NCBI GenBank assembly: GCA_021648145.1
Contig: JAKITI010000004.1
Coordinates: 63,848-127,847, forward strand
From: Gammaproteobacteria bacterium
GTDB lineage: Bacteria; Pseudomonadota; Gammaproteobacteria; JAADGQ01
Length of the DNA stretch: 64,000 nucleotides
Reading direction: 5' to 3'
The notes under the pieces are model-generated. The model ran no database searches. It had not been told where the DNA came from and was given only the letters and a program-made list of their open reading frames with translations. Every line of letters begins with the position of its first letter. Position 1 is the first letter of the stretch. The translations under genes were made by a program, and so were the position numbers. This document shows, piece by piece, positions 21,582 through 39,469 of this stretch.

Positions 21582-22298
21582 TCAAGAAATAGTGCAAAAA
21601 TCTTTCATATATTTTCGGCTGACGGGGATGATCGCACCGCTAACGGTGTGAATCTCTCCTAAACCATTTTCCTGCTTTGTGATCATTTTTATACAGTCTG
21701 GATCGACTAAATGTTGTCGGTAACATCGTACTAATGGAGTATTTTCTTCAAGCACTTTTAAAGAAAGGTCGGTATGAAATTCCTCGCAATTTTTGCCCGT
21801 AACAATATGCACTCCCGTAGTAGTAGTGGAGAATGCACGACAGACATCTTTGACATTGATGAGATAGTTGCAACCATCTTTGTAGCAGGGAATAAATTGC
21901 ATGGTTGTAGATAAGATTTTTACGATATCAGGCTGTGGTCGATAGTCCTCTTTAAGACGCTCTAATGTGATGTTTAAACGATCTGTTTTTACAGGTTTTA
22001 ATAAAAAGTCGATAGCATTTTTTTCAAATGCTTCGATTGCATATTCAGGGTAAGCGGTGACAAAAACAATGCGTGGCATGTCATCTTTATCCAGCATGCG
22101 AAGCATCTCTATGCCTGATATTTTGGGCATGATGATATCAAGAAAAACAACATTCGGGCGCTTGCTGTTGATCTCTTTAATTGCTTCGAATGCATTGGCG
22201 CATTTACCCACGATGTTAAAATCAGGGTCTGCCCCGATCTTTTCTTCCAGATCATCACGCGCGTGAGGTTCATCATCAACAATGAGGGCATTAATCAT
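21582..22298 (-). CDS. LytTR-family response regulator (receiver plus LytTR DNA-binding domain)
   Basis: 238 aa with a receiver domain (ALIVDDEPHARDDL...VVFLDIIMP) and a C-terminal LytTR domain. It overlaps the lytS stop by 4 nt. Confidence 0.85.
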   Translation of the reverse strand: MINALIVDDEPHARDDLEEKIGADPDFNIVGKCANAFEAIKEINSKRPNVVFLDIIMPKISGIEMLRMLDKDDMPRIVFVTAYPEYAIEAFEKNAIDFLLKPVKTDRLNITLERLKEDYRPQPDIVKILSTTMQFIPCYKDGCNYLINVKDVCRAFSTTTTGVHIVTGKNCEEFHTDLSLKVLEENTPLVRCYRQHLVDPDCIKMITKQENGLGEIHTVSGAIIPVSRKYMKDFCTIS

Positions 22299-22301
22299 CT
22301 T

Positions 22302-24110
22302 TTACTCCTTATTATATGGCAGGCGGATATTGACTTGAGTCCACTGCTCCGGTTCACATGAAATAGTAATTCCATAATCCTGACCGTAGCGTATTTTAAT
22401 CCGTTCATCTATTTTCAGTCCGATTCCATGCGGGCTGTTTTTTATATACAGACCCGCATTATCTTCGACGGTCAAGGTCAGCTTATCACTATTTGTCGCA
22501 CAGCTGATCTTGATTACGCCTGTGCCAAGTAATTCACTTGTGCCATGTTTTATGGCATTTTCAACAATCGGTTGTAACGTAAAAACAGGAATCACTTGAT
22601 CAAATAAATACTCTGGAATATCAATATGAATTTGCAAGCGGTCTTCAAAACGTGCTTTTTCTATTGCGAGATAAGATTTGATATGTTCCAGCTCGGATCG
22701 AAGCGTGATGGTATCATCAGATGTTTCCAGGCTTTTTCTGAAAAAATCCGATAAATGATGCAATAAATCACGCGCTCTTTCGGGTTGTTTTTTTGTGATA
22801 TGGCTGATGGTTGCGAGTGCATTATAGAGGAAATGCGGATTGACTTGCGCAGTTAATAGCTTGTATTGGTCTTCAATGCGTAATTCTCGTTGGCGTTCAT
22901 AACGACCGGCGAGAATCTTGCTGGACAGAAGCTCAGCAATATTTTCACCCAGCTTTCTATTAATGTTACGAAATAGTTTATTTTTAGGTTCATATAGCCT
23001 GATGGTACCAATCACCTGATTGTAAACATCATCTTTGAGAGGAATAATCAATACCGAACCCAATCCACAGAACGCTTCGCGTCTGCACTGATAGTTTCGC
23101 CTGAATATCACTTTATTATTCTTAATTGCCTCCAGAGTATCTTCTGAAGCAATGAGTGAGCCGGGTATGTGATGATCATCCCCCAAGCCAGTAAATGCGA
23201 GTAGCCTTTTTTTATCGGTAATGGCGACAGCACCTACTTGGGTTTCCTGTTGTATGATTTCAGTAATTTGCTTGCTGGATTCTGGGTTAAATCGAGTAAA
23301 TATGATGCTTGCGGTTTTCTCTGCAATTTGCCATGCCGTCGTGCTGCTGCGGAGTGTGTCACAAGCACGTTTTTGTTCCTTGATCATATACATGATCAAT
23401 GCTACACCTGCAGAGTTAGCAATTAACATCGGCGGCGCAATCTCCTTAATCAAAACCCAAGTCTTGGATATTTCGTTAAAAAATAGTCCGAATAGTAAAA
23501 TAATTAACATGTGTCCCAGCACGGCAATCAGGGTGACTAAAAAGACAGCTCTAGGAGAAAATAGACGCTCCATTCGGCCGCGATGTGATAAGTAGTAGTG
23601 TACAAAACCTGCTAGAAGTCCTTCGAATGTGGTGGCCACCGCACAGGCGATATCAATATAGTGAATAGGGTCCGTCGGTGATGACATGTACCAAACTCGA
23701 TGAATTCCCCCAGTGAACCCGACAAAAAAGCCAACGACAGGGCCACCCAATAGTCCACCGAGTACCGCCCCAATGGCTCTGGTGTTGGCTATTGCACTCT
23801 CTGATTCAAATGATTGCTCGCTTAGAAATGTTCCCAGAATACAAAAACCGGAAAATACCAGATAGATAACAATTTTATCTGGTAGAGAGAGCGTGTTGTT
23901 GACCAGGTCAGTAAACACAGGTGTTTTGGTGAATAAATAAGCTAAACCTAAAAACACGAGAACGTGCAGCAATAAAGGAGTGATGTGTTCTAAAAATAGA
24001 AGGTCTTGCATGAGTGTTTCGCTGTTATAAAAATATTTATACGACAGATTAACACAAGAAAAAAATCCACTCAGATGATATGGCTGCCACTTAGAAGCTA
24101 TATCAACCAC
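22302..24110 (-). CDS. LytS/BtsS-type sensor histidine kinase (5TM-Lyt plus GAF plus His_kinase plus HATPase)
   Basis: It has an N-terminal multi-TM 5TMR-LYT region, a GAF-like middle, the His_kinase motif NPHFLYNALATISHI and an ATPase domain. The real start is probably MQDLLFLEHI near 24011. The track start at 24110 would overlap the regulatory box. Confidence 0.85.
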   Translation of the reverse strand: MVDIASKWQPYHLSGFFSCVNLSYKYFYNSETLMQDLLFLEHITPLLLHVLVFLGLAYLFTKTPVFTDLVNNTLSLPDKIVIYLVFSGFCILGTFLSEQSFESESAIANTRAIGAVLGGLLGGPVVGFFVGFTGGIHRVWYMSSPTDPIHYIDIACAVATTFEGLLAGFVHYYLSHRGRMERLFSPRAVFLVTLIAVLGHMLIILLFGLFFNEISKTWVLIKEIAPPMLIANSAGVALIMYMIKEQKRACDTLRSSTTAWQIAEKTASIIFTRFNPESSKQITEIIQQETQVGAVAITDKKRLLAFTGLGDDHHIPGSLIASEDTLEAIKNNKVIFRRNYQCRREAFCGLGSVLIIPLKDDVYNQVIGTIRLYEPKNKLFRNINRKLGENIAELLSSKILAGRYERQRELRIEDQYKLLTAQVNPHFLYNALATISHITKKQPERARDLLHHLSDFFRKSLETSDDTITLRSELEHIKSYLAIEKARFEDRLQIHIDIPEYLFDQVIPVFTLQPIVENAIKHGTSELLGTGVIKISCATNSDKLTLTVEDNAGLYIKNSPHGIGLKIDERIKIRYGQDYGITISCEPEQWTQVNIRLPYNKE

Positions 24111-24112
24111 TC
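24085..24112 (+). promoter_or_regulatory. LytTR-type direct-repeat box (GCCACTTA-N12-ACCACTCA), copy 1 of a ~130-bp conserved promoter module
   Basis: It lies in the divergent lytS / lipoprotein intergenic region. The flanks aaaaatatttatacgacagattaacaca...ccactcagatg and cctgatttgt are conserved in the other copies. Confidence 0.5.
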
Positions 24113-24153
24113 ACCTGATTTGTACTTTCTCAGTAATTGATGAGCGTTATATT

Positions 24154-25089
24154 GTGGGTAAGACCAGTTGTTTGACTGTCGTGTGCGAAGTAATTTCGCT
24201 TAATTTTTTTGATAAGGGAAATGTAATGAAAAAACTATTGTGGTGTATGTTTGCTATTTTTTTAACACTATTGAGTGCGTGTGGTGGTGACGGTGTTACC
24301 GAACCCAACGAACCAAAAATTACAAGTTTTCGTGCGGATAAAAACAGCATCATAGCTGGAACAGGAGTCAACTTAACACCTATTTTTTCTGATGGTACTG
24401 GGTCCATTGATAACGGTATAGGTCAAGTTACATCTGGCATCTCTGTCTTAGTAACCCCCGACTCTACAACAAAGTACACCTTAACGGTGAAAAATTCTGA
24501 TGGAAAATCAGTAATGTCAACTACTACCGTTAGGGTTAGTGAACCACCTAACTTACTAGAAAAGCTCGCTGGAAAGGTGAGGTTTGATTATACAGTGAAC
24601 TCGTTTCTCTTTAGTACCACTGCAAATCTTTCCAGCATAGTCTTTAATGGAGAGAAGTATCTTTTTGATAGAGTAACAAGTACCGCTTGCCTCCTTTTTG
24701 AATCACCTTCATTTGAATACTTTTGTATGAAAACAAACACCTCGGGCTCAAAAGATGTTTTTGTATTTGACATGACATCTGACACAAAAGGGGCGGGGCA
24801 ATATGAGTTTTGTCGAAGCAACGAATCAGACGAAGAGTGTGCTTTAGGGATTATGAGTCCAGATGGAGACGTTAAAGTCACCGTAATAAGTAGCTCACCT
24901 AATAGACAGTTAGAGTTAGTGATACCAACAAATTTTGAGTATATCTATAATGATGTAGAGATATACAAGCAAGGCAGTGATATGGACTCTTACTCAGAGA
25001 CTACTGTGCTGAATAGTGATAGTAAGCAAGTTGATACATTAAGTGAACGTATTGAAGCACTTCAACAAATAATCAGAGGTCATTTATGA
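24154..25089 (+). CDS. lipoprotein of unknown function
   Basis: The likely start is MKKLLWCMFAIFLTLLSACGGDG at 24226, with a lipobox LLSAC. The protein is Ser/Thr-rich and looks secreted. Confidence 0.55.
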   Translation: MGKTSCLTVVCEVISLNFFDKGNVMKKLLWCMFAIFLTLLSACGGDGVTEPNEPKITSFRADKNSIIAGTGVNLTPIFSDGTGSIDNGIGQVTSGISVLVTPDSTTKYTLTVKNSDGKSVMSTTTVRVSEPPNLLEKLAGKVRFDYTVNSFLFSTTANLSSIVFNGEKYLFDRVTSTACLLFESPSFEYFCMKTNTSGSKDVFVFDMTSDTKGAGQYEFCRSNESDEECALGIMSPDGDVKVTVISSSPNRQLELVIPTNFEYIYNDVEIYKQGSDMDSYSETTVLNSDSKQVDTLSERIEALQQIIRGHL

Positions 25090-25410
25090 AGTTTAATGAA
25101 GAAGAAAAAGCAAAATTACTGAGCCTCAATGGAGTGGGATCTACGGTGATTAAGCGATTTGAAGAAATAGGAATTAGTTCATTTAAAGAACTGAGTAAAT
25201 ATAGCGTCGATGAGGTTGCGAATAGAGTGGCGGACATGCTTGGAACGACTTGTTGGAAGAATAGTCCACAAGCACGAGCAGCCATAAAATCCGCATTAGA
25301 ACTGGCCAAAAAGGGATAAATAGTTAAGAGGCTGTCTGGTTAAAATGGTATCAGCTGAAAAGGTCTGGCCGGTCACACCACAAGGAAGTCACTTTTGCTC
25401 TGGTTGCCAG
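25000..25410 (+). repeat. ~410-bp duplicated segment, copy A (3' end of the lipoprotein gene, the HhH gene and a downstream spacer)
   Basis: About 85-90% identical to 30785..31200 when compared by eye. Example: ...aagtgaacgtattgaagcacttcaacaaataatcagaggtcatttatgaag aligns with ...aagtgaacgtattgaaacactttagcaaataatcagaggttatttatgaag. Confidence 0.6.
25086..25319 (+). CDS. small helix-hairpin-helix DNA-binding protein (Cdd1/PF11731-like)
   Basis: 77 aa with an HhH motif LNGVGSTVIKRFEEIGISSFKEL. A near-identical copy lies at 30874..31107. Confidence 0.55.
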   Translation: MKFNEEEKAKLLSLNGVGSTVIKRFEEIGISSFKELSKYSVDEVANRVADMLGTTCWKNSPQARAAIKSALELAKKG

Positions 25411-25614
25411 GCTCCTGTGCGGGCAATCCATACCGAACATGAATTTACTTGCCTTATGCTATTGTTTTCATTGCCAATAATTTTCGCTTCACTTGAGCGG
25501 CTCACAATTACAAGCCTCTGGCTTTGCCTGAGGAATTTGGCTTGTAGATATGACAACTATAATGACACAGGGGATGGATGCAGCTCTTGTAAAATCCATT
25601 TAGCACGAGTGACG

Positions 25615-25642
25615 ACCACTTAGAAGCTATATCAACCACTCA
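25615..25642 (+). promoter_or_regulatory. LytTR-type direct-repeat box (ACCACTTA-N12-ACCACTCA), copy 2
   Basis: About 155 bp upstream of the S8 peptidase start. It is followed by the conserved module tail cctagtttgtgcttttccagtcatag...tattgtttgtaaagg. Confidence 0.5.
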
Positions 25643-25766
25643 CCTAGTTTGTGCTTTTCCAGTCATAGTGAAGACTCTATTGTTTGTAAAGGCTCAGAGT
25701 TACATTCAATGCGTAGCGATGGCAAATCTGGTATTAATAGCCAGCGACTTCAATATGATATGAAAA

Positions 25767-27620
25767 ATGAAAGCCAACATATGGACAGCAATAAAAATGA
25801 AAGCAGTTATTCCATTGTTTATAACAATAATTTTTATCTCGGGTTGTGGAAGTGGGGCGGAGCCACCTCCACCTGTTAGTTATACAATTACAGTCAAGGC
25901 AGGCGTGGGGGGAGCAATTTCATCAACAACAGACCTTGATCGTGTTAATGACCCAGTTCGTTTTGATGTGCGCCCGAACAGAAGCTATACCATTGATACC
26001 ATAAGTGGTTGCGGGGGTTCGCTATCAGGCCCTACTCGATTAGGTGAATATTCTTATACGACACAGACACTCACAGCGGATTGCACAATTAATATTTCAT
26101 TTAAAGCTTTAGGTGACCCACTGTATTCTGACCAGTGGCATCTAAAAAACATAGGGCAGGCAGGGAGTGATAAAAACCCCGGAAAAGTGGGGGAAGATAT
26201 TAATGTTGAGGCTGTGTGGAACGGTTGTCAGGAAAATTCATGCCGAGGTGAAGGGGTGCGTATTGTTATCGTTGATGATGGCCTGGAAATTGGGCATGAA
26301 GATTTAAAGGCGAATGTGGTGTTGGGTAAAAGTTACGATTATATTGACAACGATACTGACCCATCGCCATCAGTTACAGAGCCAAGTGATGAAGCCATAC
26401 ATGGTACCAGTGTTGCGGGTATTATCGCTGCACGAGATTCGAATGGAGTCGGTGTCGTCGGTGTTGCGCCGCGTGCAGAGTTGGTTAGTTATAACTATTT
26501 AAATGCACAAACCGTAATGAATGAAAGTGATGCGATGACTCGGGATGCAGCACAAAATCATGTTTCCAACAATAGCTGGGGAACAGTTGACGGTACGGGA
26601 TGGCTTATGGATTCTCCCGCAGTATGGCGTACCGCTATAGATACTGGCCATCGTATTGGGCGGCATGGCTTGGGAACCATTTACGTTTGGGCGGCAGGTA
26701 ATGGTTATATCGGAAGTTTTTTGGGCAGACCATTCATAGCAGATAATTCAAATTATGATGGTTATGCGAATTATCGAGGCGTGATTGCAGTGGGTTCAGT
26801 GACAAATTCAGGAAAGAGCTCTTCTTATAGTGAGCAAGGTGCAAACCTGTTAATCAGTGCGCCGGGGGGTGAATTTTGTGATACACATGCAATTGTGACA
26901 ACCGATATCACTGGAGCGAATGGTTATAATTCAGGTTCGTCAAATAATGACTATGACGATAGTAACTATACCGCTTGTTTTGGAAGCACTTCCGCTGCAG
27001 CGCCAATGGTATCCGGTGTTGCAGCCTTGATATTGCAGGCCAATCCTCGTTTGGGTTGGCGTGATGTGCACGCTATTTTAGCACGCAGTGCCAGAAAAAA
27101 TAATCCGTCCCAATCAGATTGGAAAACAAATGGAGCAGGGCTCTCTATCAATCACAACTATGGTTTTGGTGTGGTGGATGCACAGGCGGCTGTTTTATTG
27201 GCAAAAAAATGGGTGAATTTACCGTCGGAGAAAAAATATTCAACTGCTAAAAAGGATGTCAATATAAGCATTGGTGATAATGATGATACTTCTGTTGGCT
27301 CGACCTTGAATGTGGTTTCAAGTGGTATTAATAATATTGAGTTTATTGAAATTACATTCAGGGCAGATGACCATGCTTACTCGGGTGACCTGGAAATCAT
27401 ACTGCTCAATCAGACGACAGGCACGACCAGTCGTTTAGCAGAGAAGCATGAGTGTGGTGGCTTGTTCGGTTGTATTTTGCCTTATAAAAATTGGCGTTTT
27501 GGTTCAACACGCCACCTTGGTGAAAGCGCAGATGGCGATTGGCAGCTCATCGTTAAAGATAAGGCTGATGGTGATACAGGAACATTTCAGTCATGGAAGC
27601 TGACTTTTTATGGAACTTAG
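25767..27620 (+). CDS. subtilisin/kexin-like serine peptidase (S8) with a C-terminal P-domain (proprotein-convertase type), lipoprotein
   Basis: The likely start is MKAVIPLFITIIFISGC (lipobox) at 25797. The catalytic triad regions are VIVDDGLE, HGTSVAGIIAA and GTSAAAPMVSGVAAL. The C-terminal P-domain ends DWQLIVKDKADGDTGTFQSWKLTFYG. Confidence 0.85.
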   Translation: MKANIWTAIKMKAVIPLFITIIFISGCGSGAEPPPPVSYTITVKAGVGGAISSTTDLDRVNDPVRFDVRPNRSYTIDTISGCGGSLSGPTRLGEYSYTTQTLTADCTINISFKALGDPLYSDQWHLKNIGQAGSDKNPGKVGEDINVEAVWNGCQENSCRGEGVRIVIVDDGLEIGHEDLKANVVLGKSYDYIDNDTDPSPSVTEPSDEAIHGTSVAGIIAARDSNGVGVVGVAPRAELVSYNYLNAQTVMNESDAMTRDAAQNHVSNNSWGTVDGTGWLMDSPAVWRTAIDTGHRIGRHGLGTIYVWAAGNGYIGSFLGRPFIADNSNYDGYANYRGVIAVGSVTNSGKSSSYSEQGANLLISAPGGEFCDTHAIVTTDITGANGYNSGSSNNDYDDSNYTACFGSTSAAAPMVSGVAALILQANPRLGWRDVHAILARSARKNNPSQSDWKTNGAGLSINHNYGFGVVDAQAAVLLAKKWVNLPSEKKYSTAKKDVNISIGDNDDTSVGSTLNVVSSGINNIEFIEITFRADDHAYSGDLEIILLNQTTGTTSRLAEKHECGGLFGCILPYKNWRFGSTRHLGESADGDWQLIVKDKADGDTGTFQSWKLTFYGT

Positions 27621-27652
27621 AAACGGTCACAAAATTTCAGGATGGTTTTATT

Positions 27653-28285
27653 ATGAATAAAATATTATTACGTCAATGTGTCTTCGTCAGTATGGTCATA
27701 GGGTTGGCGGTATTTCAGGTAAGCTGGGCGATGAGTTCAAAGCCTGACGTTAATGCTAAACAACTGGTAGAGCCAGCTCACTATTTTTGGTATGACGGAG
27801 ATGAAAAACGATCCGTTTGGGTGAACCCAAAATTAATGGTTGAATTTAAGTTGCAGCCCGAGACGAGCACTCAACTACAATTACGTTACGCGGCAAAAGA
27901 GATTGATGTACCGTCATCTTTTGTTCGCCTTTGGGAAATTGAAAGTGATCTGTCAACCAAAGCTGTTGCTAGAAGTTTGAATAAAGATGTGGGTAGCCAG
28001 CTCTCTCCTGTATTGCATGATAGTGCGTCAATCTCTGGAGCCAAAAGAGCGTTGCCTGGAAATGTTTTGGTTCAAATGAGAGCTGATTGGAGCATGGGGC
28101 AAATAGAGTCCTGGTTTGAAATGCATGATTTAATCATGATTAAATCTTTAACTTTTGCGGAAAATTCATTTTTGATCAGATCAAATCCGGGGTTGGACGC
28201 ACTGAATACGGCAAACCGAATTTACGAAACAGGTGACGTAGTATTGGCTTCACCTGATTGGTGGCAGGAAATGGTTGCTAGGTAA
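27653..28285 (+). CDS. secreted protein co-transcribed with the S8 peptidase (possible cognate chaperone, ASP/ORF2-like arrangement)
   Basis: The track ORF starts at 27593 but the signal peptide MNKILLRQCVFVSMVIGLAVFQVSWA begins at 27653. There is no detectable catalytic motif. It follows the protease with a 30-nt gap. Confidence 0.45.
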   Translation: MNKILLRQCVFVSMVIGLAVFQVSWAMSSKPDVNAKQLVEPAHYFWYDGDEKRSVWVNPKLMVEFKLQPETSTQLQLRYAAKEIDVPSSFVRLWEIESDLSTKAVARSLNKDVGSQLSPVLHDSASISGAKRALPGNVLVQMRADWSMGQIESWFEMHDLIMIKSLTFAENSFLIRSNPGLDALNTANRIYETGDVVLASPDWWQEMVAR

Positions 28286-28355: not shown

Positions 28356-29900
28356 ATGCATAAAAAAAAGTATTGGCTGCTTGCTCTAGTCATTTTGTTT
28401 ATATGTCTATTTATATCAAACCAAGCCTTTGCTGCTGAGAGCGCAGGTTTCGGAGAAGCGCTTGATAGATGGTTTGGAGTGTTAGTCGGTTATATTGCTG
28501 CCGTTTCATTTTTTGATCTGCTTTTTTTCAGCGATGATTACAAACTCCCCTTCGCCGTTGCATGGCTCATTGTCGGTGCTGTTTTTTTCACATTCCGTAT
28601 GGGGTTTATTAACGTAAGAGCCTTCACTCATGCGATTCAATGTGTTCGCGGGCGTTATGACAATCCAAACGATGTCGGTGAAACCAGCCACTTTCAAGCG
28701 CTGACAACTGCACTTTCTGCGACTGTCGGTTTAGGCAATATTGCCGGTGTTGCAATCGCCATCAGTATCGGTGGGCCAGGCGCTACATTCTGGATGATTG
28801 TGGCCGGTTTTTTAGGAATGACGGCTAAATTCACTGAGTGTACTTTGGCGCAGATGTATCGAAAAGTTCGCCCTGATGGTCATATCATGGGGGGGGCTAT
28901 GGAATATTTAAGTCAGGGACTGGCTGAAATGGGCTGGGCCAGGTTAGGTAAAGTGCTGGCCGTGTTGTTTTGTATTCTATGTATTTTGGGCTCTTTCGGT
29001 GGCGGCAATGCTTTTCAAGTTAATCAATCACTCGGAATCATCCAGCAGCATATTCCCTTGTTAGAGAGCAGTCCCTGGATTTTTGGGCTATTTATGATGG
29101 TATTAGTTGGTGCAGTTATTATTGGTGGAATTAAGCGTATTGCCCATGTGACTGAAGCCATTGTACCTACAATGTGTGCTATCTATGTAGCCGCCTGCCT
29201 CTGGGTTATCTTAACCAATATGCCTGAAATTCCTGCAGCATTTTCACTGATTTTTACGGGTGCTTTTTCACCTGAAGCTGGGTTGGGCGGTATCATCGGT
29301 GTTTTGATTATTGGCTTTCAACGTGCCGCATTTTCCAATGAAGCTGGCATTGGCTCAGCAGCCATCGCTCACTCAACCGCAAAAACAAAATATCCAGTGC
29401 GTGAGGGTATTGTTTCACTGCTTGAGCCTTTTATTGATACCATCATTATCTGCACAATGACTGCTTTAGTCATCATTATTACGGGTGTTTACAATAGCCC
29501 TGAAACGGCTGAATTGGTTGCAAATAGACAAGGTGCAGCGTTAACCAGTGTTGCTTTTGGCAGTGCCATTTCATGGTTTCCTATCATACTGAGCATATGT
29601 GTCACTCTATTTGCTTTCAGTACAATGATCGCTTGGTCTTTTTATGGTGAGCGTTGCTGGTCATACCTATTTGGTGATCAATCCTCCATTATTTATAAAT
29701 TATTGTTTTTATTGTTTGTTTTATTAGGCTCCGTGGTCAGCGCCCCTAATGTTTTAGATTTCAGTGATTTAATGATTTTACTCATGGCAATTCCTAATCT
29801 GATTGGCCTCTATTTTCTGCATGGGAAAGTAAAAATAGCACTGCGTAGTTATATGAAAAAATTAAAGAGTGGTGAATTTGAAAAAGAGCGTCAGCATTGA
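28356..29900 (+). CDS. alanine/glycine:cation symporter (AGCS family)
   Basis: 514 aa with about 11 TM helices and AGCS hallmark blocks GLGNIAGVAIAISIGGPGATFWMIVAGFLGMTAKFTEC and QRAAFSNEAGIGSAAIAHS. Confidence 0.85.
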   Translation: MHKKKYWLLALVILFICLFISNQAFAAESAGFGEALDRWFGVLVGYIAAVSFFDLLFFSDDYKLPFAVAWLIVGAVFFTFRMGFINVRAFTHAIQCVRGRYDNPNDVGETSHFQALTTALSATVGLGNIAGVAIAISIGGPGATFWMIVAGFLGMTAKFTECTLAQMYRKVRPDGHIMGGAMEYLSQGLAEMGWARLGKVLAVLFCILCILGSFGGGNAFQVNQSLGIIQQHIPLLESSPWIFGLFMMVLVGAVIIGGIKRIAHVTEAIVPTMCAIYVAACLWVILTNMPEIPAAFSLIFTGAFSPEAGLGGIIGVLIIGFQRAAFSNEAGIGSAAIAHSTAKTKYPVREGIVSLLEPFIDTIIICTMTALVIIITGVYNSPETAELVANRQGAALTSVAFGSAISWFPIILSICVTLFAFSTMIAWSFYGERCWSYLFGDQSSIIYKLLFLLFVLLGSVVSAPNVLDFSDLMILLMAIPNLIGLYFLHGKVKIALRSYMKKLKSGEFEKERQH

Positions 29901-32098: not shown

Positions 32099-32218
32099 AG
32101 AATTTTAGTTGTTTTTTATATTCGTAATATTTTATTTCTCGCTTGTTTTCTTCGCTGTATAAAAATATTTATACGACAGATTAACACAGGAAAAAAACCC
32201 CACTCAGATGGAATAACT

Positions 32219-32246: not shown

Positions 32247-32360
32247 TTTGATTTGTGCTTTTCCAGTCATGATGAAGACGATATTGTTTGTAAAGGATCA
32301 TGGTTATATTCAATACGAAGACTTGATTCCTTTGTTTTGTCTTTATAGGAGGAGGAAAAG

Positions 32361-33419
32361 ATGAGTAAATATTTGTTTGTAATGGGTGCTTTTTTATTGG
32401 CCCACCTGATTGTCATTTCTCCTGAGAGAGGAATGGATATGGCAAAGGCTCTGGATATTGATGTCAGTGTGCTCACATACGCCTTGTGGGCGATTATTCT
32501 GGTCTTATTGATCAAATTTGCTTTCTCTTTACCTGGAATATACGTAAACATTGCTGAGGGAAATGTCGGTGTTGTCTCGCGTTTTAGTCGCTTCTCAAGA
32601 ACGCTAAGCCCGGGGTTTAACTTTATCTATCCGTGGGAGAAAGTTGAAAATTTGTCGATCCAGTGTCGTGCCATCGAGCTGGAGTTCCAGGCGATTACGC
32701 TAGACCAAGCCAGTGTCTATTTTAACTGTGCCATCATTTTTTCGGTTGTTGGTACAGATAAGGAAATGGTGCGCAGGGCTGTCTATTCGTTTGGGTCAGA
32801 AAGTGAGTTTGAGTTATCTGTCCAGCGTTTGCTCGAAGATGAAACCCGTGCCTATGTGGCCACCAGATGCCAGGCAGATATGATAGGAATATCCCAGGAT
32901 GTTGTCGTAAAAATCAAAACAAATGTCGAGAAAAATATCGAAAAATGGGGGTATAAGGTAGAGGATCTCCGTTATGCAAACCTTCATTTTGATGAGGTGG
33001 TTACAAAGTCAATGGCAAGGGTTGTTGCTGCCGTCAATGAAAGGGATGCCGCAGAAAATGAAGGCCAGGCACTACTTATTCGCAAGGTCAAATTAGCCGA
33101 GGCTGAAGGGGAATTTGTCCGCATTCAGGCCGAAGCGGAACGAACCGCATGGAAGTTGCGAGGGCAAGGCTTGTCTGATTTTCGAAAAGAGGTTGCCAAA
33201 GGTATCCACGTTGCAGTGGATGAGATGACAACAGCAGGGCTTGACCCTAACTTCCTTCTGTTTTTTATGTACACGGAAACATTGAAACACATCGCAGAAA
33301 ACTCAAATGCGGGTAGTACTATTTTTGTGGACAACAGTCCTTCTGTACCTAATACCATCATGCAGCAGATGTCTGCATTTTATAAAAACGAACCCATTTC
33401 AGAGAAAACTGAAAGTTAA
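32361..33419 (+). CDS. SPFH/band-7 (stomatin/prohibitin-like) membrane protein
   Basis: 352 aa with an N-terminal TM helix, an SPFH core (NVGVVSRFSRFSRTLSPGFNFIYPWEKVENLSIQ) and a coiled-coil segment. Confidence 0.8.
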   Translation: MSKYLFVMGAFLLAHLIVISPERGMDMAKALDIDVSVLTYALWAIILVLLIKFAFSLPGIYVNIAEGNVGVVSRFSRFSRTLSPGFNFIYPWEKVENLSIQCRAIELEFQAITLDQASVYFNCAIIFSVVGTDKEMVRRAVYSFGSESEFELSVQRLLEDETRAYVATRCQADMIGISQDVVVKIKTNVEKNIEKWGYKVEDLRYANLHFDEVVTKSMARVVAAVNERDAAENEGQALLIRKVKLAEAEGEFVRIQAEAERTAWKLRGQGLSDFRKEVAKGIHVAVDEMTTAGLDPNFLLFFMYTETLKHIAENSNAGSTIFVDNSPSVPNTIMQQMSAFYKNEPISEKTES

Positions 33420-33543
33420 CAGAGAAAGAGCAGAAATAGGGGTCAAACATTGACCCCTTGCCCCCAGGTTTTAATGAAGACTCTATTCAAGGCATTGTTG
33501 AGTATAACAGTGGGCAATATAAGTTTAGTGAAGGAGAGTATAA

Positions 33544-33693
33544 ATGAACACAATATTATTGGGCATATTTAAACTTACAGGAATAGGAGGACTTTTGCTC
33601 ATAATTATGGTGCTTTGTATAGTGGGTGTTATTAATAGAACTGAAGGTAAAAATAGTAAAGGGGGAGGTTGGGATGATGGCTGTGGCGGCTGA
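33544..33693 (+). CDS. unannotated small single-TM peptide (49 aa), copy A
   Basis: MNTILLGIFKLTGIGGLLLIIMVLCIVGVINRTEGKNSKGGGWDDGCGG*. It has an RBS-like GAAGGAGAG upstream. Its conserved 5' leader is shared with copy B at 36761. It is below the 60-aa ORF-track cutoff. Confidence 0.45.
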   Translation: MNTILLGIFKLTGIGGLLLIIMVLCIVGVINRTEGKNSKGGGWDDGCGG

Positions 33694-33802
33694 CTTTAGT
33701 GTTAGGTGTGACGTTCTCGTATTCAGAAAGCATTTGAGTTGCGTTTGTAAAAATGTGCCGATAAATTAACACAGGGAAAAATCCCACTCAGATGGAATAA
33801 CT

Positions 33803-33830
33803 ACCACTTAGAAGATATATCAACCACTCA
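33803..33830 (+). promoter_or_regulatory. LytTR-type direct-repeat box (ACCACTTA-N12-ACCACTCA), copy 5
   Basis: About 98 bp upstream of the pspA-like ATG at 33928. Confidence 0.5.
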
Positions 33831-33927
33831 CCTGATTTGTGCTTTTCTAGCCGCGTTCAAGCGATTACTGTTTACCCTTGTTTCCACGTTCATGTGTGGA
33901 AGTACATATCTCAAACAGGAGAGCAAA

Positions 33928-34606
33928 CATGAGTGAAACTTTAACAGGCCGTGTTGGGCGTATTATCAGCGGCAGTGTCAATACACTGGTCGATGCTATT
34001 GAAAACGCGACACCCGAGATGGTCATGGAACAAGCGGTTCGTGAAATTGATAGCTCTGTAGATGATGTGCGCACCGAACTAGGCCGTATGATGGCGAAGA
34101 AGCATCTTGCCAATAAACGTCTTATGGAAGAGAGTAGAAAACATAAGGAGTTAGCCGAAAAAACCAACCTCGCTATAGAGCAAGGTCGGGATGATTTGGC
34201 CGAAGCAGCCATTGCACAGCAGTTAGATATTGAAGCGCAAATTCCGATACTGGAAAACGCCATTGCAGATGCCGCCAATCAGGAAAAAGAGCTGGAAGGT
34301 TATATCTTTGCGCTTCAAGCAAAAAAACGGGAGATGAAAGAGGAGCTGCAACTGTTTCATGCGGCGAAAAAAGAGGCTGCCGCGAGTCGCAATACAAATT
34401 CAACCGTGCGCACAAACTCCAATGTGCAATCTCGCGTAGAAAAAGCAACATCAGCATTTGAACGTGTGGTTGAAAACTCCACGGGTATGCCGAGTAGTCA
34501 CGGCCCTAGTGACCGAAAAACAGCCGTTCAGCTGGTGGAATTAGAGGCGCTTGCCCGCAAAAACCGCATCCAGAAACGATTAACGGCTATCAAAGAAAGG
34601 GCTTAA
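33928..34606 (+). CDS. pspA: PspA/IM30-family protein (phage-shock protein A-like, ESCRT-III fold)
   Basis: The track ORF starts at 33878. The likely start is MSETLTGRVGRIISGSVNTLVDAIE at 33928 with the RBS caggagag. The whole protein is coiled-coil and co-linear with PspA. Confidence 0.85.
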
Positions 34607-34633: not shown

Positions 34634-34894
34634 ATGTCAATTGATGAAACCGACGCAGTATCTGAAGAAACCTTTATTGGACGAGTGGCCAAGATCACCT
34701 TAGGGAAAGCTGAGATTAGCAGTCCAGCACAAGCAAAGTTAAAAGATGAGCATGGCCAGATCCATTACATCATGGTTGAGCCTGACATGCAGAATGAAAT
34801 TTTTGAAACCGGTCGTTTAGTTATTTTAGTCAGCAGGGTTGGTGCTATTTTTAAAGCGATTCCCAACGACAAATCGGTTCTTTTTGATGAATAA
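34634..34894 (+). CDS. hypothetical soluble protein co-operonic with pspA and flotillin
   Basis: 86 aa with no TM helix. The gaps are tight: 27 nt after pspA and 17 nt before the flotillin gene. Confidence 0.45.
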   Translation: MSIDETDAVSEETFIGRVAKITLGKAEISSPAQAKLKDEHGQIHYIMVEPDMQNEIFETGRLVILVSRVGAIFKAIPNDKSVLFDE

Positions 34895-34911: not shown

Positions 34912-36669
34912 ATGAATTTTGATTTAACGAATATACAGATTATTACAGTAGCCTTCATCACTTCTCTGATTGTACTTGGGTTGATATGTAGCCGTTTATA
35001 TAGGCGGGCTTCTAAACAAGTCTCTTTTGTGCGAACCGGATTTCGTGGCCAAAAGGTGATTAAAAATGGCGGTTGCCTCGTCTATCCCGTGCTGCATGAA
35101 ATCATTCCCGTTAACATGAATACGTTACGCTTGGAGGTTCGGCGGTCAAATGAACAAGCTTTAATTACACGAGACCGTATGCGTGTTGATGTGGCCGCTG
35201 AATTTTACGTACGAGTAAAACCAACAGAAGATGCCATTGGCGATGCGGCTCAAACTTTGGGCATGAAAACCATGAAACCCGAACTATTAAAACAGTTGAT
35301 TGAAGGTAAATTTGTTGATGCCCTACGTGCCGTTGCCGCCGAGATGGCGATGGAAGAACTGCATGAACAACGGGTCGATTTTGTTCAAAAAGTTCAACAA
35401 GCCGTCTCAGAAGATTTATTGAAAAATGGCTTGGAACTAGAGTCCGTTTCACTCACAGGTTTAGACCAAACCAGTAAAGAGTTCCTTAACCCTGACAATG
35501 TTTTTGATGCGGAGGGTTTAACCAAGCTAACAGAGGCAATTGAAAGTCGTCGCAAGAAGCGTAATGACATTGAGCAAGACACTGAAGTGGCCGTTGCCAA
35601 TAAAAATCTCGACGCTGAGCGTAACAAATTAGAAATTCAACGAGAACAAGAATACGCTCGACTAGAACAAGAGCAGGAAATTGAAATTCGTCGCGCCGCA
35701 CAAACGGCAGAAATTTCACGTGAACGAGCAGAGAAACAACGTGATGCTGAGCAAGCGCAAATTAATGCACAACAACAAGTAGAATCTTCAAAAATTGCAA
35801 CTGAGCGTGCTATTGAAGAGCAGCGTATCGATAAAGATCGTCAGCTAAAAGAAAACGAAATCACTAAGACTAAGGCCGTAGAAACGGCGGAAATAGAACG
35901 CCTCAAAACAGTCGAATTAGCTGAGCAAGACCGCGCTATCGCCATTGCAGAAAAATCGAAAGAAAAATCTGTCAGTGAAGCCACTGCCGACAAAGCGCGG
36001 GCCGAGGCGGTAAAAGCTGAAGAAATGGTTGTCACCGTTCGTGAAACGGAACAAGCTGAGCGAGCAAAAGCCGTTGAACTGGTTCTTGCAAGTCAACAAG
36101 CCGAGCGCCAGGCGATCTCTATCAAAGTCGCTGCCGAGGCAGAAAAAATGGCGGCAGAGGATCAAGCCGAAGCCGTGGCCATTTTAGCCAATGCAGAAGC
36201 ACAAAAGCTGCGCATTACCGCTGAAGGCTGTGCCGATGCGGAAAAACTAAAAGCTGAAGCGGCTGAAAAAACATATGCAGTCGATGCTGAAGGCCAACAC
36301 GCCCTCAATGAGTCACGCAACATTCTCAGCGCAGAACAGATCGCGATGCAAATACGCATGGCCTTGATAGAGCAACTACCGCAAATCATCCGTGAAAGCG
36401 TTAAGCCCATGGAGCAAATTGACGGTATTAAAATTATTCAAGTTGATGGTTTAAATGGCGGTTCAAATGGATCTGGAGAAACAGCAACCAATAATAGTAA
36501 TGGTGGAAGCTTGGCCGATCAGTTAGTCAATAGTGCCTTGAAATACCGCAGCCAGGCACCGTTGGTTGATTCGCTATTATCCGACATTGGCTTGGACGTG
36601 GGTGATATTAATGGCATGAGCAGAATGCTTCACAATAAGCCCGAAACAGAGAGTAAAAGAGGGGTTTAA
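34912..36669 (+). CDS. flotillin-family protein (SPFH domain plus long EA-rich coiled coil, YqiK/FloT-like)
   Basis: 585 aa with an N-terminal TM helix, an SPFH domain, and about 250 aa of Glu/Ala/Arg/Gln-rich coiled coil (EQEIEIRRAAQTAEISRERAEKQRDAEQAQ...) followed by a flotillin C-terminal region. Confidence 0.85.
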   Translation: MNFDLTNIQIITVAFITSLIVLGLICSRLYRRASKQVSFVRTGFRGQKVIKNGGCLVYPVLHEIIPVNMNTLRLEVRRSNEQALITRDRMRVDVAAEFYVRVKPTEDAIGDAAQTLGMKTMKPELLKQLIEGKFVDALRAVAAEMAMEELHEQRVDFVQKVQQAVSEDLLKNGLELESVSLTGLDQTSKEFLNPDNVFDAEGLTKLTEAIESRRKKRNDIEQDTEVAVANKNLDAERNKLEIQREQEYARLEQEQEIEIRRAAQTAEISRERAEKQRDAEQAQINAQQQVESSKIATERAIEEQRIDKDRQLKENEITKTKAVETAEIERLKTVELAEQDRAIAIAEKSKEKSVSEATADKARAEAVKAEEMVVTVRETEQAERAKAVELVLASQQAERQAISIKVAAEAEKMAAEDQAEAVAILANAEAQKLRITAEGCADAEKLKAEAAEKTYAVDAEGQHALNESRNILSAEQIAMQIRMALIEQLPQIIRESVKPMEQIDGIKIIQVDGLNGGSNGSGETATNNSNGGSLADQLVNSALKYRSQAPLVDSLLSDIGLDVGDINGMSRMLHNKPETESKRGV

Positions 36670-36760
36670 TTATTAAAATATATAGGTTTTGATGAAGACT
36701 CTATTCAGGGTGTTGTTGAGTATAACAATGGGCAATATAAATTAGTGAAGGAGAGTATAA

Positions 36761-36931
36761 ATGAACACAATATTATTGGGCATATTTAGTGTCGTTATGA
36801 TAGTGGTCGTAGTGAACATATTCGAACTTACAGGAATAGGAGGACTTTTGCTCATAATTATGGTGCTTGGTATAGTGGGTGTTATTAATAGAACTGAAGG
36901 TAAAAATAGTAAAGGGGAGAGGTTGGGATGA
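36761..36931 (+). CDS. unannotated small TM peptide, copy B (56 aa, with a 1-nt indel near the 3' end relative to copy A)
   Basis: MNTILLGIFSVVMIVVVVNIFELTGIGGLLLIIMVLGIVGVINRTEGKNSKGERLG*. Its leader matches copy A: gatgaagactctattca.ggc.ttgttgagtataaca.tgggcaatataa.tt.agtgaaggagagtataaatgaacac. Confidence 0.4.
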   Translation: MNTILLGIFSVVMIVVVVNIFELTGIGGLLLIIMVLGIVGVINRTEGKNSKGERLG

Positions 36932-36995
36932 TGGCTATAGTGGTTGATTTTTTATGCAACGAGCAGGGTGAATAAACAGCCCCTTTGGAGGATCC

Positions 36996-38747
36996 ATGGA
37001 TTCTGATTATTTTAGTCAAATGCTCTATGCCTTCCCAGGGATTTCCGTACTGGCACCCTGGTTCAACAGCCTACTCATCATAGATATTTTACAGCAGATG
37101 GCCCTGCTATTCGTTGTTGCCTTCCTGTTTAGCCGTTCAGGAGCCTTCGGGCTGTTGGTCAAGGATTCACTTCGGACTCGTGACTGGCTGTTGCTCTACC
37201 TGATTTTTTTTGCTATCTCAGCTATGGGCTCTGTATTGGCTTCCAATGTTCCACTGACGCCAGGCGGCGATGACTGGACTCAGGTGGATACTCGTTCCAT
37301 CGGCGCAGTGCTAGCGGGGTTTTTGGGTGGTCCCTTGCTTGGAACTGCGGTTGGCTTTACCGCTGGCCTCTATCGGTGGAGCCTGGGCGGGCCTACTGCT
37401 ATGGCGGGTTTCATAGGAACCACATTAGTCGGGCTTATAGCAGGTCTGGTCTACATGTTTTTTCTGAAAAAAAATCAGGAGGTACGTTTTGGTTGGAAAA
37501 TTGCGGTAGTCGCCACCTGCGTGGGTGAGCTGATCATGAAGGTCTTGGTGCTGCTTACCGTTCAACCATTCGATAAAGCACTGGCTCTTATTCAGATTAC
37601 CACCGTTCCCAGTTTAATTGGCAATAGTATCGGAGCCGCCTTGTTCGTTACCATATTGAATGATAAAGAGCGTCTTGGTGTCTTGCATACCACCACCGCA
37701 CTGCGTATGGCCAAGCGTTTAGTTGATGTTCTGAAATATGGCTTCAATAAAAGTGCTGCAAGGGCAATCGTCAACATCATCCGCGGAGAGACCCAGATTG
37801 CAACAGTAGCGATCACTGATCATACCAATAAAGTCATGGCAATAACCGGAGTCGGAGCCGATCATCATCACGTCGGTGATGAAATTGTCGCTGACCTGGT
37901 TCAAAACGCCATTGACCAACAGCGGGTTATCTTTATAAATGGTTCAACCGACCGGCTCCATTGTGCAACTTCTGCCAACTGCCCATTACATTCTGCGCTC
38001 ATCGCTCCACTTATTGTGGAGGGAAACGTACTGGGTGTATTGTTGCTGATTGAACCAAAGCGACGTTTTTTCCCCAAGTTGAACCGTGCTTTGGGCGTGG
38101 GCGTTGCCGAGCTTTTATCCGAGCAGATGCAATTAGCTATGTATCAAGAGCAACTGGCCAGCGCAAAACACAAGCTTCTTATTGCACAGATAAATCCACA
38201 TTTTTTATCCAATGCATTGAACACCATCTCTGCCATTGTTCGAACTGATACAGCTCGCGGCAGAGAGCTGTTGACCAAGCTGGCGTTCCTGATGCGCAAG
38301 AGCATAAAATATGAAAATGAAATCAGCACCCTAGAGGAAGAGTTGGAACATATGGATGCACATCTCAGTATCGATCTGGCTCGTTATGGCGACAAACTTC
38401 GAATAGAAAAAAATATCGAACCGAAACTGATGAATGCACTACTTCCCAGTTTTGTTCTTCAGCCATTGGTAGAAAATGCAGTCAAACATGGAACATCTCG
38501 CCTATTGATCCCTGGCATTATCCAGATACGCGCCTATCAAACAGGTGATGGATTGATTAAAATTGAGGTCAAAGACAATGCAGGACAATATCAGCCTAAA
38601 TTATCAGCGACTCAAGGCCTTGGCATGAAAAACGTCGAAGGAAGAATCAAAACGCTATTTGGTCGCCAATATGGATTAAGTATCGACTGTTCACCGAACC
38701 AGCACACCAGCGTTACAATTACCATACCATTCAGGGATCAGCTATGA
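36996..38747 (+). CDS. LytS/BtsS-type sensor histidine kinase, second paralog
   Basis: 583 aa with the same architecture as the 22302..24110 protein and the His_kinase motif NPHFLSNALNTISAIV. Confidence 0.85.
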   Translation: MDSDYFSQMLYAFPGISVLAPWFNSLLIIDILQQMALLFVVAFLFSRSGAFGLLVKDSLRTRDWLLLYLIFFAISAMGSVLASNVPLTPGGDDWTQVDTRSIGAVLAGFLGGPLLGTAVGFTAGLYRWSLGGPTAMAGFIGTTLVGLIAGLVYMFFLKKNQEVRFGWKIAVVATCVGELIMKVLVLLTVQPFDKALALIQITTVPSLIGNSIGAALFVTILNDKERLGVLHTTTALRMAKRLVDVLKYGFNKSAARAIVNIIRGETQIATVAITDHTNKVMAITGVGADHHHVGDEIVADLVQNAIDQQRVIFINGSTDRLHCATSANCPLHSALIAPLIVEGNVLGVLLLIEPKRRFFPKLNRALGVGVAELLSEQMQLAMYQEQLASAKHKLLIAQINPHFLSNALNTISAIVRTDTARGRELLTKLAFLMRKSIKYENEISTLEEELEHMDAHLSIDLARYGDKLRIEKNIEPKLMNALLPSFVLQPLVENAVKHGTSRLLIPGIIQIRAYQTGDGLIKIEVKDNAGQYQPKLSATQGLGMKNVEGRIKTLFGRQYGLSIDCSPNQHTSVTITIPFRDQL

Positions 38748-39469
38748 CCATAAACGTTATTCTCATAGACGATGAAACTTTGGCGCAAGACGAGCTGGCA
38801 TATCTTTTGGAACGGCACGATGACTTTCGCATCGTTGCCCGATGTGAAGATGTTTTCTCTGCCCTGCGTAAAATTCGCGAACACAAACCAGATGCTATTT
38901 TTTTGGACATTATCATGCCCGGACAAGATGGTTTTACGCTGCTCGACTATATGGCGCCGGAGGAACACCACCCTCACGTCGTGGTTGCCACTGGAGGGGA
39001 AAGTGATTTTGCAGTGCGTGCCTATGCAGAGGGTGTGCTGGATTATCTAACAAAACCCATCGAAGAGGAGCGTTTTGATAAAGCGATAGAACGAATTAGG
39101 AGTCAGGTTTCAGACCCAAGTATCGAAGTACTCCCTTATCCAGATCGCATACTCGAAATTATTCCGTGTATTTTCAATCATCGAATAAAATTTATTAAAC
39201 CTAAAGAGATAGAATTTGTACGGTCTGATAGCCGTGGTATTTACGTCATATGTGCAGAAAAAGATTTTTATACCGAATTAACATTAGCTACTTTCGAGAC
39301 TAAAACCACACTCATTCGTTGTCATCGTCAACACATGATAAATCTTGTACATATTGACGAACTTATTCCACTGGAAAATGGTTTAGCAGAAATTAAAACA
39401 ATATCTGGGCATCGCGTTCCGGTCAGTCGTCATTATCTCAAATGTTTAAAGGAAAAATTAGGGGTGTAA
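38744..39469 (+). CDS. LytTR-family response regulator, second paralog
   Basis: 241 aa with a receiver domain (VILIDDETLAQDEL...AIFLDIIMP) plus a LytTR domain. It has a 4-nt overlap with lytS2. Confidence 0.85.
   Translation: MTINVILIDDETLAQDELAYLLERHDDFRIVARCEDVFSALRKIREHKPDAIFLDIIMPGQDGFTLLDYMAPEEHHPHVVVATGGESDFAVRAYAEGVLDYLTKPIEEERFDKAIERIRSQVSDPSIEVLPYPDRILEIIPCIFNHRIKFIKPKEIEFVRSDSRGIYVICAEKDFYTELTLATFETKTTLIRCHRQHMINLVHIDELIPLENGLAEIKTISGHRVPVSRHYLKCLKEKLGV

Follow-up and report, generated by a model that had tools for sequence, protein, structure and literature searches.

What controls a long run of co-directional genes that has a LytS/LytTR sensor system at each end? The question is raised by positions 21582-39469 of the window analysed here, a stretch of 64,000 nucleotides (nt) from a gammaproteobacterial metagenome-assembled genome (contig JAKITI010000004.1, positions 63,848 to 127,847). 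In this block, plus-strand genes with no minus-strand interruption diverge from one response regulator/histidine kinase pair (RR1/HK1, minus strand, pair 1) and close with a second (HK2-RR2, pair 2). A first-pass annotation of the sequence had proposed a membrane-stress and envelope-remodelling regulon. Five promoters within the block share a cis-element that matches the operator of Escherichia coli BtsR, so the best reading is that the flanking LytS/LytTR systems control these promoters in a coordinated way. We consider it likely that the block is an enlarged target zone, a five-unit BtsR-type regulon between two divergent, anciently paralogous BtsS/BtsR-type systems, with pair 2 as a downstream member. 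Protein families were assigned by Pfam scans of the listed open reading frames (ORFs), and BtsR, PspA and LiaH equivalogs by NCBIfam profiles. The sensors and promoter modules are as follows.

21582..22298, minus strand: RR1, BtsR-type response regulator, REC + LytTR (Pfam, NCBIfam)
22302..24011, minus strand: HK1, BtsS-type LytS histidine kinase, 5TM-5TMR_LYT/GAF/His_kinase (Pfam)
24018..24161, plus strand: promoter module copy A, in the HK1/lipoprotein divergent intergenic region; boxes at 24067, 24087 and 24107
25596..25716, plus strand: promoter module copy B; boxes at 25596 (CCATTTA), 25616 and 25636
30053..30202, plus strand: promoter module copy C; boxes at 30083, 30103 and 30123
32151..32320, plus strand: promoter module copy D; boxes at 32200, 32220 and 32240
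33753..33850, plus strand: promoter module copy E; boxes at 33784, 33804 and 33824
36996..38747, plus strand: HK2, second BtsS-type LytS kinase (Pfam)
38744..39469, plus strand: RR2, second BtsR-type regulator, REC + LytTR (Pfam)
39559..39577, plus strand: solitary box remnant GCTGCCACTTA, 3' of RR2 (repeat search)

The repeat search recovered five copies (A-E) of one element of ~100-170 nt, each just 5' of a transcription unit, the first genes being those for a lipoprotein (A), an S8 protease (B), a DUF4344 fragment (C), an SPFH protein (D) and PspA (E). Pairwise identity ranges from 84 to 94% over 51-145 nt; copies C and D are 94% identical over 145 nt, and copy D additionally holds the HK1-proximal part of copy A. 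Each module contains three direct repeats of (C/G/A)CCACT(C/T)A with a 20-bp period, arranged as CCACTYA-N13-CCACTYA-N13-CCACTYA, the window boxes being CCCACTCA-N12-GCCACTTA-N12-ACCACTCA. As operator reference we used the published YehT (BtsR)-binding oligonucleotide (PMC4847170) and the E. coli genome sequence. The PbtsT (yjiY) promoter of strain MG1655, GCCGCTCA-N12-ACCGCTTA-N13-ACCACTCA, has its triplet inside that oligonucleotide and represents the same operator, with three (A/G/C)CC(A/G)CT(C/T)A repeats at 20-21-bp spacing 5' of the target. The third box lies 142 nt from the start codon in E. coli and ~105-150 nt from it in the window, where all five modules face the same way and stand at similar distances upstream of intact start codons.

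LytTR boxes had been postulated in the first-pass annotation, and they exist: ten paired boxes occur in the block and one weak pair elsewhere in the 64 kb, against 1.3 expected from shuffles, and single 7-mers outside the module copies are at chance level. The further claim that PspA, flotillin and SPFH each stand behind a box is correct for PspA and SPFH, but not for flotillin, which has no box of its own and shares copy E with PspA. A consensus promoter scan gave fewer sigma-70-like sites than in shuffles, and none usable in the modules.

Eleven more box sites were found in related metagenomic contigs, adjoining HK1 or HK2 orthologs or lying 5' of envelope genes. They keep the three 7-mers and their spacing, and their spacers and flanks diverge; in a stack of 16 sites plus E. 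coli, the three 7-mers form the most conserved columns. Two flank classes can be distinguished among the stacked sites. All five window modules carry the flank that accompanies HK1, CCTGATTTGTGCTTTTCC, which in relatives is found at the promoter divergent from HK1 (L214, and L206 on the minus strand) and in a module of L216 that is not beside HK1. Promoters 5' of HK2 orthologs carry the other flank, CTCCTTTACATCAAT, and the 7-mers are the same in both classes. In a metagenome scan with the triple-box pattern, which took in at least 120 stretches, nearly all of the matches listed were unrelated repeats and L156 alone resembled the module.

Comparison of the two sensor pairs with the E. coli LytS/LytTR systems identifies both, by sequence, as homologues of the nutrient sensor BtsS/BtsR. 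They have its domain architecture, and full-length identity is 47% between HK1 and BtsS, 38% between HK2 and BtsS, 45% between RR1 and BtsR and 40% between RR2 and BtsR. Identity is 32% between RR1 and YpdB and 27% between HK2 and YpdA, and all four proteins are 8-18 percentage points nearer to BtsS/BtsR than to YpdA/YpdB. With 279.5 bits, RR1 clears the 246-bit cut-off of the NCBIfam BtsR equivalog NF008677; RR2, with 244.8 bits, falls 1.2 bits short of it. The receiver domain is more BtsR-like in RR1 than in RR2; for the LytTR domain, identity to E. coli BtsR is 47% in RR2 and 37% in RR1. The first-pass annotation had rightly called the two systems paralogous, and since pair 1 and pair 2 are only 32% and 36% identical (36% for HK1 versus HK2), they are old paralogues.

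E. coli BtsS binds pyruvate through R72, R99, C110 and S113, and each of the substitutions S113A, C110G and S113G abolishes btsT induction (PMC10653868). In alignments to E. coli BtsS, these four positions are occupied by R, R, C and A in HK1 and by R, R, G and G in HK2. Pyruvate sensing by HK1 or HK2 is, on these residues, doubtful; because both carboxylate-binding arginines are kept and other pocket residues are changed, we take a small extracellular carboxylate, not necessarily pyruvate, as the most plausible ligand. The idea that these sensors detect membrane stress finds no feature in their sequences to favour it; of the coherent sensor-effector system proposed earlier, the common BtsR-type cis-element is supported and the stress signal is not.

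How the block came about is suggested by the sensor loci of relatives. In L212, both pairs are adjacent and divergent, ~2 kb apart, each operon behind a box promoter, and an outer membrane protein (OMP) beta-barrel-like gene opens the HK1 operon there. L214 has a box promoter divergent from HK1, as in the window, and in L216 the HK1 ortholog stands beside an inverted S8 protease fragment and an ortholog (63%) of the window lipoprotein. Two features are conserved among the relatives, the box promoter beside the sensors and the divergent pairing of both sensors. The module itself carries different cargo in different genomes: an 82%-identical copy in L216 (4179-7656, minus strand) is followed by other genes. 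That cargo consists of small ORFs, an FeeM-like N-acyl amino acid synthase, a methyltransferase and a LuxR-type autoinducer-binding protein.

HK2 orthologs (71-79% identity) have the same boxes upstream and are never beside psp genes. Their boxes usually drive a small protein with two transmembrane (TM) segments or an OMP-like protein, and then the kinase; DUF2207 is among the further box targets in relatives. SDF transporter genes adjoin the sensor loci in three genomes, including an 80% ortholog beside HK2 in L208 and a fragment after RR1 in L212, and these sequences suggest a conserved transporter-sensor link. The 2-TM protein, which has a Gly/Ser/Asp-rich tail, lies 5' of HK2 orthologs in L210 (9475-9711), L208 (9313-9678) and L212 (8298-8579, minus strand); its window counterpart is the ORF at 36761-36931. 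Pfam gives no match for it, and it may serve the kinase as an accessory protein. The OMP beta-barrel-like family (~200-224 amino acids, aa) is a recurrent box-promoter target in relatives and is absent from the window; its members are listed here.

L156, 10844-11518: OMP beta-barrel-like
L212, 9031-9705: OMP beta-barrel-like
L206, ~9000-9310, minus strand: OMP beta-barrel-like
L205, 9337-9921: OMP beta-barrel-like

The remaining genes of the block and the features at its right edge are the following.

24226..25089, plus strand: orphan lipoprotein, lipobox LSAC (no Pfam or NCBIfam match)
25086..25319, plus strand: HhH protein copy a, 77 aa (weak HHH_5 / IMS_HHH_1 Pfam matches)
25767..27620, plus strand: kexin/furin-like S8 protease with P-domain (Pfam Peptidase_S8 + P_proprotein)
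27593..28285, plus strand: secreted tandem prodomain-like partner, putative ORF2-like external chaperone of the S8 protease (profile and structure matches)
28356..29900, plus strand: AGCS alanine/glycine:cation symporter (Pfam Na_Ala_symp, 431 bits)
29890-29906: terminator-like hairpin after AGCS (predicted)
29934..30042, plus strand: remnant of the chaperone gene 3' end, a duplication scar (81% identity to 28158-28266)
30271..30774, plus strand: C-terminal part of DUF4344, a putative metallopeptidase (Pfam profile positions 146-220 of 220)
30790..31198, plus strand: duplicate segment with lipoprotein 3' remnant, HhH copy b (30874-31107) and downstream sequence (92% to 25002-25412)
31481-31774 and 31771-32094, plus strand: MntA (NTase) and HepT, toxin-antitoxin pair (Pfam Polbeta/NTP_transf_2, HepT-like)
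32361..33419, plus strand: membrane-anchored SPFH/Band-7 protein (Pfam Band_7, 85 bits)
33466..33697, plus strand: small-TM-protein module copy 1 (ORF 33544-33693, 49 aa), duplicate of 36684-36951
33929..34606, plus strand: PspA/IM30, 225 aa (Pfam PspA_IM30, 70.1 bits, cut-off 33.9)
34634..34894, plus strand: YqiJ/NfeD OB domain, 86 aa (Pfam YqiJ_OB, 94.7 bits)
34912..36669, plus strand: YqiK-type flotillin, Band_7 + Flot (Pfam)
36684..36951, plus strand: small-TM-protein module copy 2 (ORF 36761-36931, 56 aa), directly 5' of HK2, duplicate of 33466-33697
39648..42700, minus strand: two paralogous SDF (DAACS) transporters, 39648-40907 and 41390-42700 (Pfam SDF)

The gene order given in the first-pass annotation agrees with the ORF listing and Pfam almost item for item, and Pfam confirms every family that it named. 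Three starts needed correction. HK1 begins at 24011 rather than 24110, as in an identical deposited protein of 569 aa, and the plus-strand run begins with the lipoprotein at 24226 rather than at 24154. The corrected starts of the lipoprotein and of PspA (33929) agree with deposited or called proteins; for PspA, a ribosome-binding site and an ATG can be read in the sequence, and the same 225-aa gene is called in L001, this organism's own locus, as is the small-TM ORF of module copy 1. The start of HhH copy a overlaps the lipoprotein stop.

Several of these features are traces of duplication. A segment of 412 nt (25002-25412), comprising the last 88 nt of the lipoprotein gene and the HhH gene, recurs at 30790-31198 with 92% identity; a second copy of the chaperone gene 3' end stands after AGCS, with 81% nt identity and, for the translated remnant, 68% over 37 aa; and the small-TM module is present after both SPFH and flotillin, with a reading-frame difference between the copies. 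By their sequences, the gene remnants mark recent local duplication. A 47-nt stretch near 39510-39577, by the solitary box, is the complement of positions 41412-41458, at the 3' end of the second SDF gene, and this stretch and the box are further recombination scars.

Because the two pairs of L212 are adjacent, divergent and only ~2 kb apart, we read the 12.9-kb run as an expanded target zone: the block looks like an ancestral divergent operon pair in which the stretch between the operons expanded from ~2 kb to 12.9 kb. Growth would have proceeded by repeated copying of the HK1-side promoter before resident and acquired genes, and the PspA-YqiJ-flotillin operon would have been recruited by swapping its usual upstream gene for a copied promoter.

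Phosphorylated RR1, RR2 or both would bind the repeats and activate five units. The first would comprise the orphan lipoprotein and HhH; the second, the kexin-like lipoprotein protease, its ORF2-like chaperone and the alanine/glycine symporter; the third, the DUF4344 remnant and HhH, possibly with MntA/HepT; the fourth, SPFH and a small TM protein; and the fifth, PspA, the YqiJ OB domain, flotillin, a small TM protein and HK2-RR2. Co-regulation of the units is well supported by the shared boxes; regulator binding and activation, which regulator acts, read-through into HK2, and the signal are what we infer from them.

The position of pair 2 in the fifth unit gives this scheme its connection between the two sensors. 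HK2-RR2 lacks a boxed promoter of its own and lies 3' of the boxed pspA-flotillin unit, with gaps of 92 nt from flotillin to the small-TM ORF and 64 nt from that ORF to HK2. The region upstream of the small-TM ORF resembles the module core over 16 nt only, which is too short to build on, and no terminator was predicted between flotillin and HK2. Pair 2 has lost the boxed promoter present in relatives and is probably read from the pspA promoter, and activation of the regulon would then raise the level of the second sensor. With no box of its own and no terminator predicted 5' of it, a cascade or positive feedback is plausible, and to this extent the co-transcription and feed-forward loop suggested for LytS2/LytTR2 in the first-pass annotation hold up as plausible. 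The physiological logic would be nutrient scavenging together with membrane maintenance, which is the least certain step.

The PspA-YqiJ-flotillin set was compared with 80 flotillin loci from reference genomes, taken with 10 kb on each side. The best relatives of the window flotillin, 61-75% identical, belong to Desulfobacterota and Gammaproteobacteria, and the order PspA-YqiJ-flotillin is kept in ~64 of the 80 loci. None of the 80 has a LytS kinase, or a counterpart of the block's SPFH protein or S8 protease, nearby; a weak LytTR-like match (28%) 4 kb downstream in L061 is the only one of its kind among them. The arrangement LytS...SPFH-PspA-flotillin...LytS is absent from all 80 flotillin-anchored loci and from every contig with orthologous sensors that we examined. 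The first-pass annotation had held that such absence would indicate a recent mosaic; on that measure and judging from sequence, the block arrangement is one, and the gene remnants agree.

Operons that combine PspA, a band-7/flotillin protein and YqiJ/YuaF (NfeD) have already been described in Psp surveys (PMC11237479, PMC9239133), and the window operon has their order: PspA, YqiJ_OB and a TM + Band_7 + Flot protein. It differs from them in lacking a ~165-aa upstream gene, winged helix-turn-helix (wHTH) regulators and the YqiJ membrane domain, and in being fused to a LytTR-type promoter with a sensor pair downstream. The ~165-aa gene is conserved in at least 51 of the 80 flotillin loci, lies directly 5' of PspA, beside a wHTH regulator, in the two loci inspected. 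Examples in L007 (8055-8558) and L018 (8159-8647) have an RHH-like N-terminus (ISxRLTQEDAxFI) and no Pfam match, and the product may be the partner called CesT/Tir-like in a Psp survey. YqiJ measures 212-283 aa in 77 of 79 ORFs, 178 aa in one and 86 aa only in this organism (L001), where the OB domain is present and the N-terminal membrane domain is missing; that the duplicated small two-TM ORFs after SPFH and flotillin stand in for the lost anchor is speculative. The window PspA fails the strict NCBIfam PspA and LiaH equivalogs, and no domains of PspF/sigma-54, PspB, PspC or LiaRS are found in the Pfam-scanned ORFs of the window.

According to PMC8581546, a PspA-family protein works with an SPFH/flotillin partner in Bacillus pspA-ydjGHI, as may be the case here. 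In the one Psp survey searched for the term, LytTR is mentioned only with Toastrack proteins, and, that context aside, the literature searched contains no link of LytTR or BtsR regulators with PspA and flotillin. The first-pass annotation did not recognise the combination as a described system: its PspA-flotillin-YqiJ/NfeD core is a known operon, and its connection with LytTR was indeed not found in the literature searched.

Control of PspA systems is known by sigma-54/PspF, by LiaRS and by a few other regulators. The LiaRS-liaIH system of Bacillus places a PspA homologue under two-component control, with the NarL-type regulator LiaR instead of the LytTR type found here and with a different sensor type and operon content.

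The protease of the second unit matches furin/kexin (1e-50) and Aeromonas sobria ASP (1e-44) among PDB sequences, and it is probably a lipoprotein. Its partner (230 aa) is one of a large, unnamed family with 807 representatives, in which 17 of 41 members match Fervidolysin_NPro-like. In a Foldseek search, the partner's AlphaFold2 model (pLDDT 84.9) matched PC1/3 and furin prodomains with TM-scores of 0.69-0.77 and the ASP chaperone ORF2 (3wqb_B) with 0.60, so that the model identifies the partner as a putative prodomain-like external chaperone of the ORF2 type. As in A. sobria ASP/ORF2 (PDB 3WQB), the gene of a secreted partner with prodomain fold comes after that of a kexin-like S8 protease with P-domain; unlike ORF2, the window partner has two prodomain-like repeats (18% identity), the protease seems to be a lipoprotein, and the pair shares a BtsR-type-promoter unit with AGCS through predicted co-transcription. 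For the orphan lipoprotein of the first unit, a search of 5.8 billion proteins found two, i.e. one homologue; neither Pfam nor NCBIfam gave a match, and a single-sequence AlphaFold model (pLDDT 36.9) was unusable. The DUF4344 fragment at 30271-30774 is, from its truncated profile match, probably a remnant. MntA and HepT are encoded by adjacent genes for a minimal nucleotidyltransferase and a HepT-like RNase with stop/start overlap; PADLOC, run on the proteins of the block, returned only a generic subtilase model and no defence system.

Several considerations weigh against a five-unit BtsR-type regulon. The whole model is sequence-inferred and comes from a metagenome-assembled genome. E. coli BtsR has a single target, a CstA-family transporter, and no transporter of that family (btsT/yjiY type) is found among the Pfam-scanned ORFs of the window. 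As to the binding regulator, the HK1-type flanks on all five modules and the more BtsR-like DNA-binding domain of RR2 point different ways, and copy A is oriented away from HK1, which bears on the autoregulation of pair 1. The near-identity of the copies might reflect very recent duplication instead of selection, and several units hold remnants. The repeats might instead be scars of recent segmental duplication and recombination in a decaying, unselected mosaic. Lipoprotein and chaperone remnants, the DUF4344 fragment, the truncated YqiJ, the small-TM frame difference, the solitary box and the rearrangement of the region in every relative examined, including the inverted S8 fragment of L216, are all consistent with this. 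We find it improbable as an account of the whole, since the modules keep a uniform orientation and ~105-150 nt to an intact start codon in every copy, no columns are better conserved across distant sites than those of the boxes, and the large genes (S8, AGCS, SPFH, PspA, flotillin and both sensor pairs) are intact. That the modules are structured RNA leaders (riboswitches or attenuators) or a mobile miniature element rather than protein operators is hardly credible. The ~70 nt 3' of the boxes are also conserved among the copies and in L216, which speaks for it, but the Rfam scan of the window gave three tRNAs only and no family in the block, the leaders fold no better than shuffles (z -1.4 to +0.35), no terminal inverted repeats were seen, and the copies, all in one orientation, are found only within the block in the 64-kb window. 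Fold, Rfam and orientation results effectively exclude this explanation.

In the membrane-stress alternative, the sensors would track the membrane potential or damage to the envelope, a role that has been proposed for LytS in Firmicutes; PspA, flotillin and SPFH would be repair effectors and the remaining units envelope-remodelling accessories. PspA, YqiK-type flotillin and SPFH are indeed all behind boxes, the box targets of relatives are also envelope proteins (OMP beta-barrel-like, 2-TM small proteins, DUF2207), and pair 2 is embedded in the psp unit. This is nevertheless unlikely: both kinases are BtsS homologues whose two retained carboxylate-binding arginines suggest a small molecule as the ligand, the psp-flotillin operon has been recruited recently and in no relative examined is linked to these sensors, and the protease/chaperone/amino-acid symporter unit fits scavenging better than repair. 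A serious sub-variant, owing to the flank classes, is that pair 1 alone uses the five modules and pair 2 is separate, e.g. serving the SDF transporters, and merely lies downstream of the psp unit with no cascade. The CCTGATTTGTGCTTTTCC flank on all five modules, as opposed to CTCCTTTACATCAAT at HK2-ortholog promoters, speaks for it, as do the SDF genes adjoining the sensor loci and a conserved 77-nt region 5' of the small-TM gene that could hold a promoter of its own. Identical 7-mers in both flank classes, the closeness of the RR2 DNA-binding domain to E. coli BtsR, the failure of the window box scan to find a pair upstream of either SDF gene and the lack of a predicted terminator between flotillin and HK2 all speak against it, and we regard it as rather unlikely.

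Returning to the BtsR-type regulon, its parts were known before: BtsS/BtsR with its operator, the PspA-flotillin-NfeD operon, ASP/ORF2-like pairs and MntA/HepT. New are the wiring, in which BtsR boxes stand before several clustered operons, a captured Psp/flotillin/SPFH set among them; the growth of a regulon by an amplified promoter cassette; and, probably, two BtsS/BtsR-type pairs in series. BtsS/BtsR has been described as a single-target pyruvate sensor governing a transporter, and the one gene that BtsR controls in E. coli encodes a CstA-family pyruvate transporter; here five operator-bearing units are clustered, none of them CstA-type, the C110/S113 pocket is changed, the second pair resembles BtsS/BtsR rather than YpdA/YpdB, and the host is autotrophic. 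E. coli is known to have two LytS/LytTR systems interconnected in one cell, and A. hydrophila has two BtsS/BtsR-type systems.

Neighbouring LytTR-controlled operons that each stand behind the same repeat pair or triplet, with autoregulated regulators in the locus, are known from pln of Lactobacillus plantarum and from streptococcal blp/com. There the kinases are of the peptide-pheromone HPK10 type and the targets are genes for bacteriocins or competence, whereas the window kinases are of the 5TM-Lyt/GAF type and the cargo consists of envelope, protease and transport genes.

More tentatively, as a possible history that we would stop short of calling probable, carboxylate-sensing BtsS/BtsR pairs may have enlarged their regulon by promoter copying, capturing the horizontally spread PspA-YqiJ-flotillin operon, SPFH and a protease/amino-acid-uptake unit, which would make this the first LytTR-controlled Psp/flotillin membrane-maintenance response, with pair 1 switching on pair 2. 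If true, nature would here provide a clear case of a regulon that grew by duplicating a promoter cassette. The locus suggests that the same sensor family and operator could direct a programme of envelope and scavenging functions that spans several operons in a chemoautotroph, and local copying of a complete activator-dependent promoter before newly acquired genes is a plausible route of regulon growth. Because the operator and its E. coli counterpart are nearly identical, the prediction is testable in E. coli although the host is uncultured. The altered HK1 and HK2 pockets are natural variants for re-targeting BtsS to other carboxylates, an aim stated in PMC10653868.

Outside the block, genes for form I RuBisCO large subunit, CsoS2, CsoSCA and an SbtA-like bicarbonate transporter (51191-56538 and 58855-59841) identify the host, by sequence, as an uncultured alpha-carboxysome-bearing autotrophic gammaproteobacterium, and since it is an autotroph, the presence of two nutrient-sensor-like systems is notable. 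The two SDF paralogs are 72% identical at the nt level and convergent with RR2. Just 3' of the block, positions 42831-45876 encode DUF2058 and a 762-aa MFS-like/spermine-synthase fusion; spermine-synthase-like genes are reported from PspA neighbourhoods in a Psp-system survey. A VWA, DUF4381 and DUF58 set of the BatA/MoxR-associated type follows at 45884-48447 (minus strand), beside ftsK. On the left, at 19963-21516, tRNA-Ala(GGC) and tRNA-Glu(TTC) come after gltX, with an AAA-type ATPase (20410-21516) immediately adjoining the block, and no integrase was seen. Farther left, a region of low GC content (0.35-0.39) at 4702-13794 carries two paralogous polysaccharide-lyase genes and a cluster of four GT4 glycosyltransferases.

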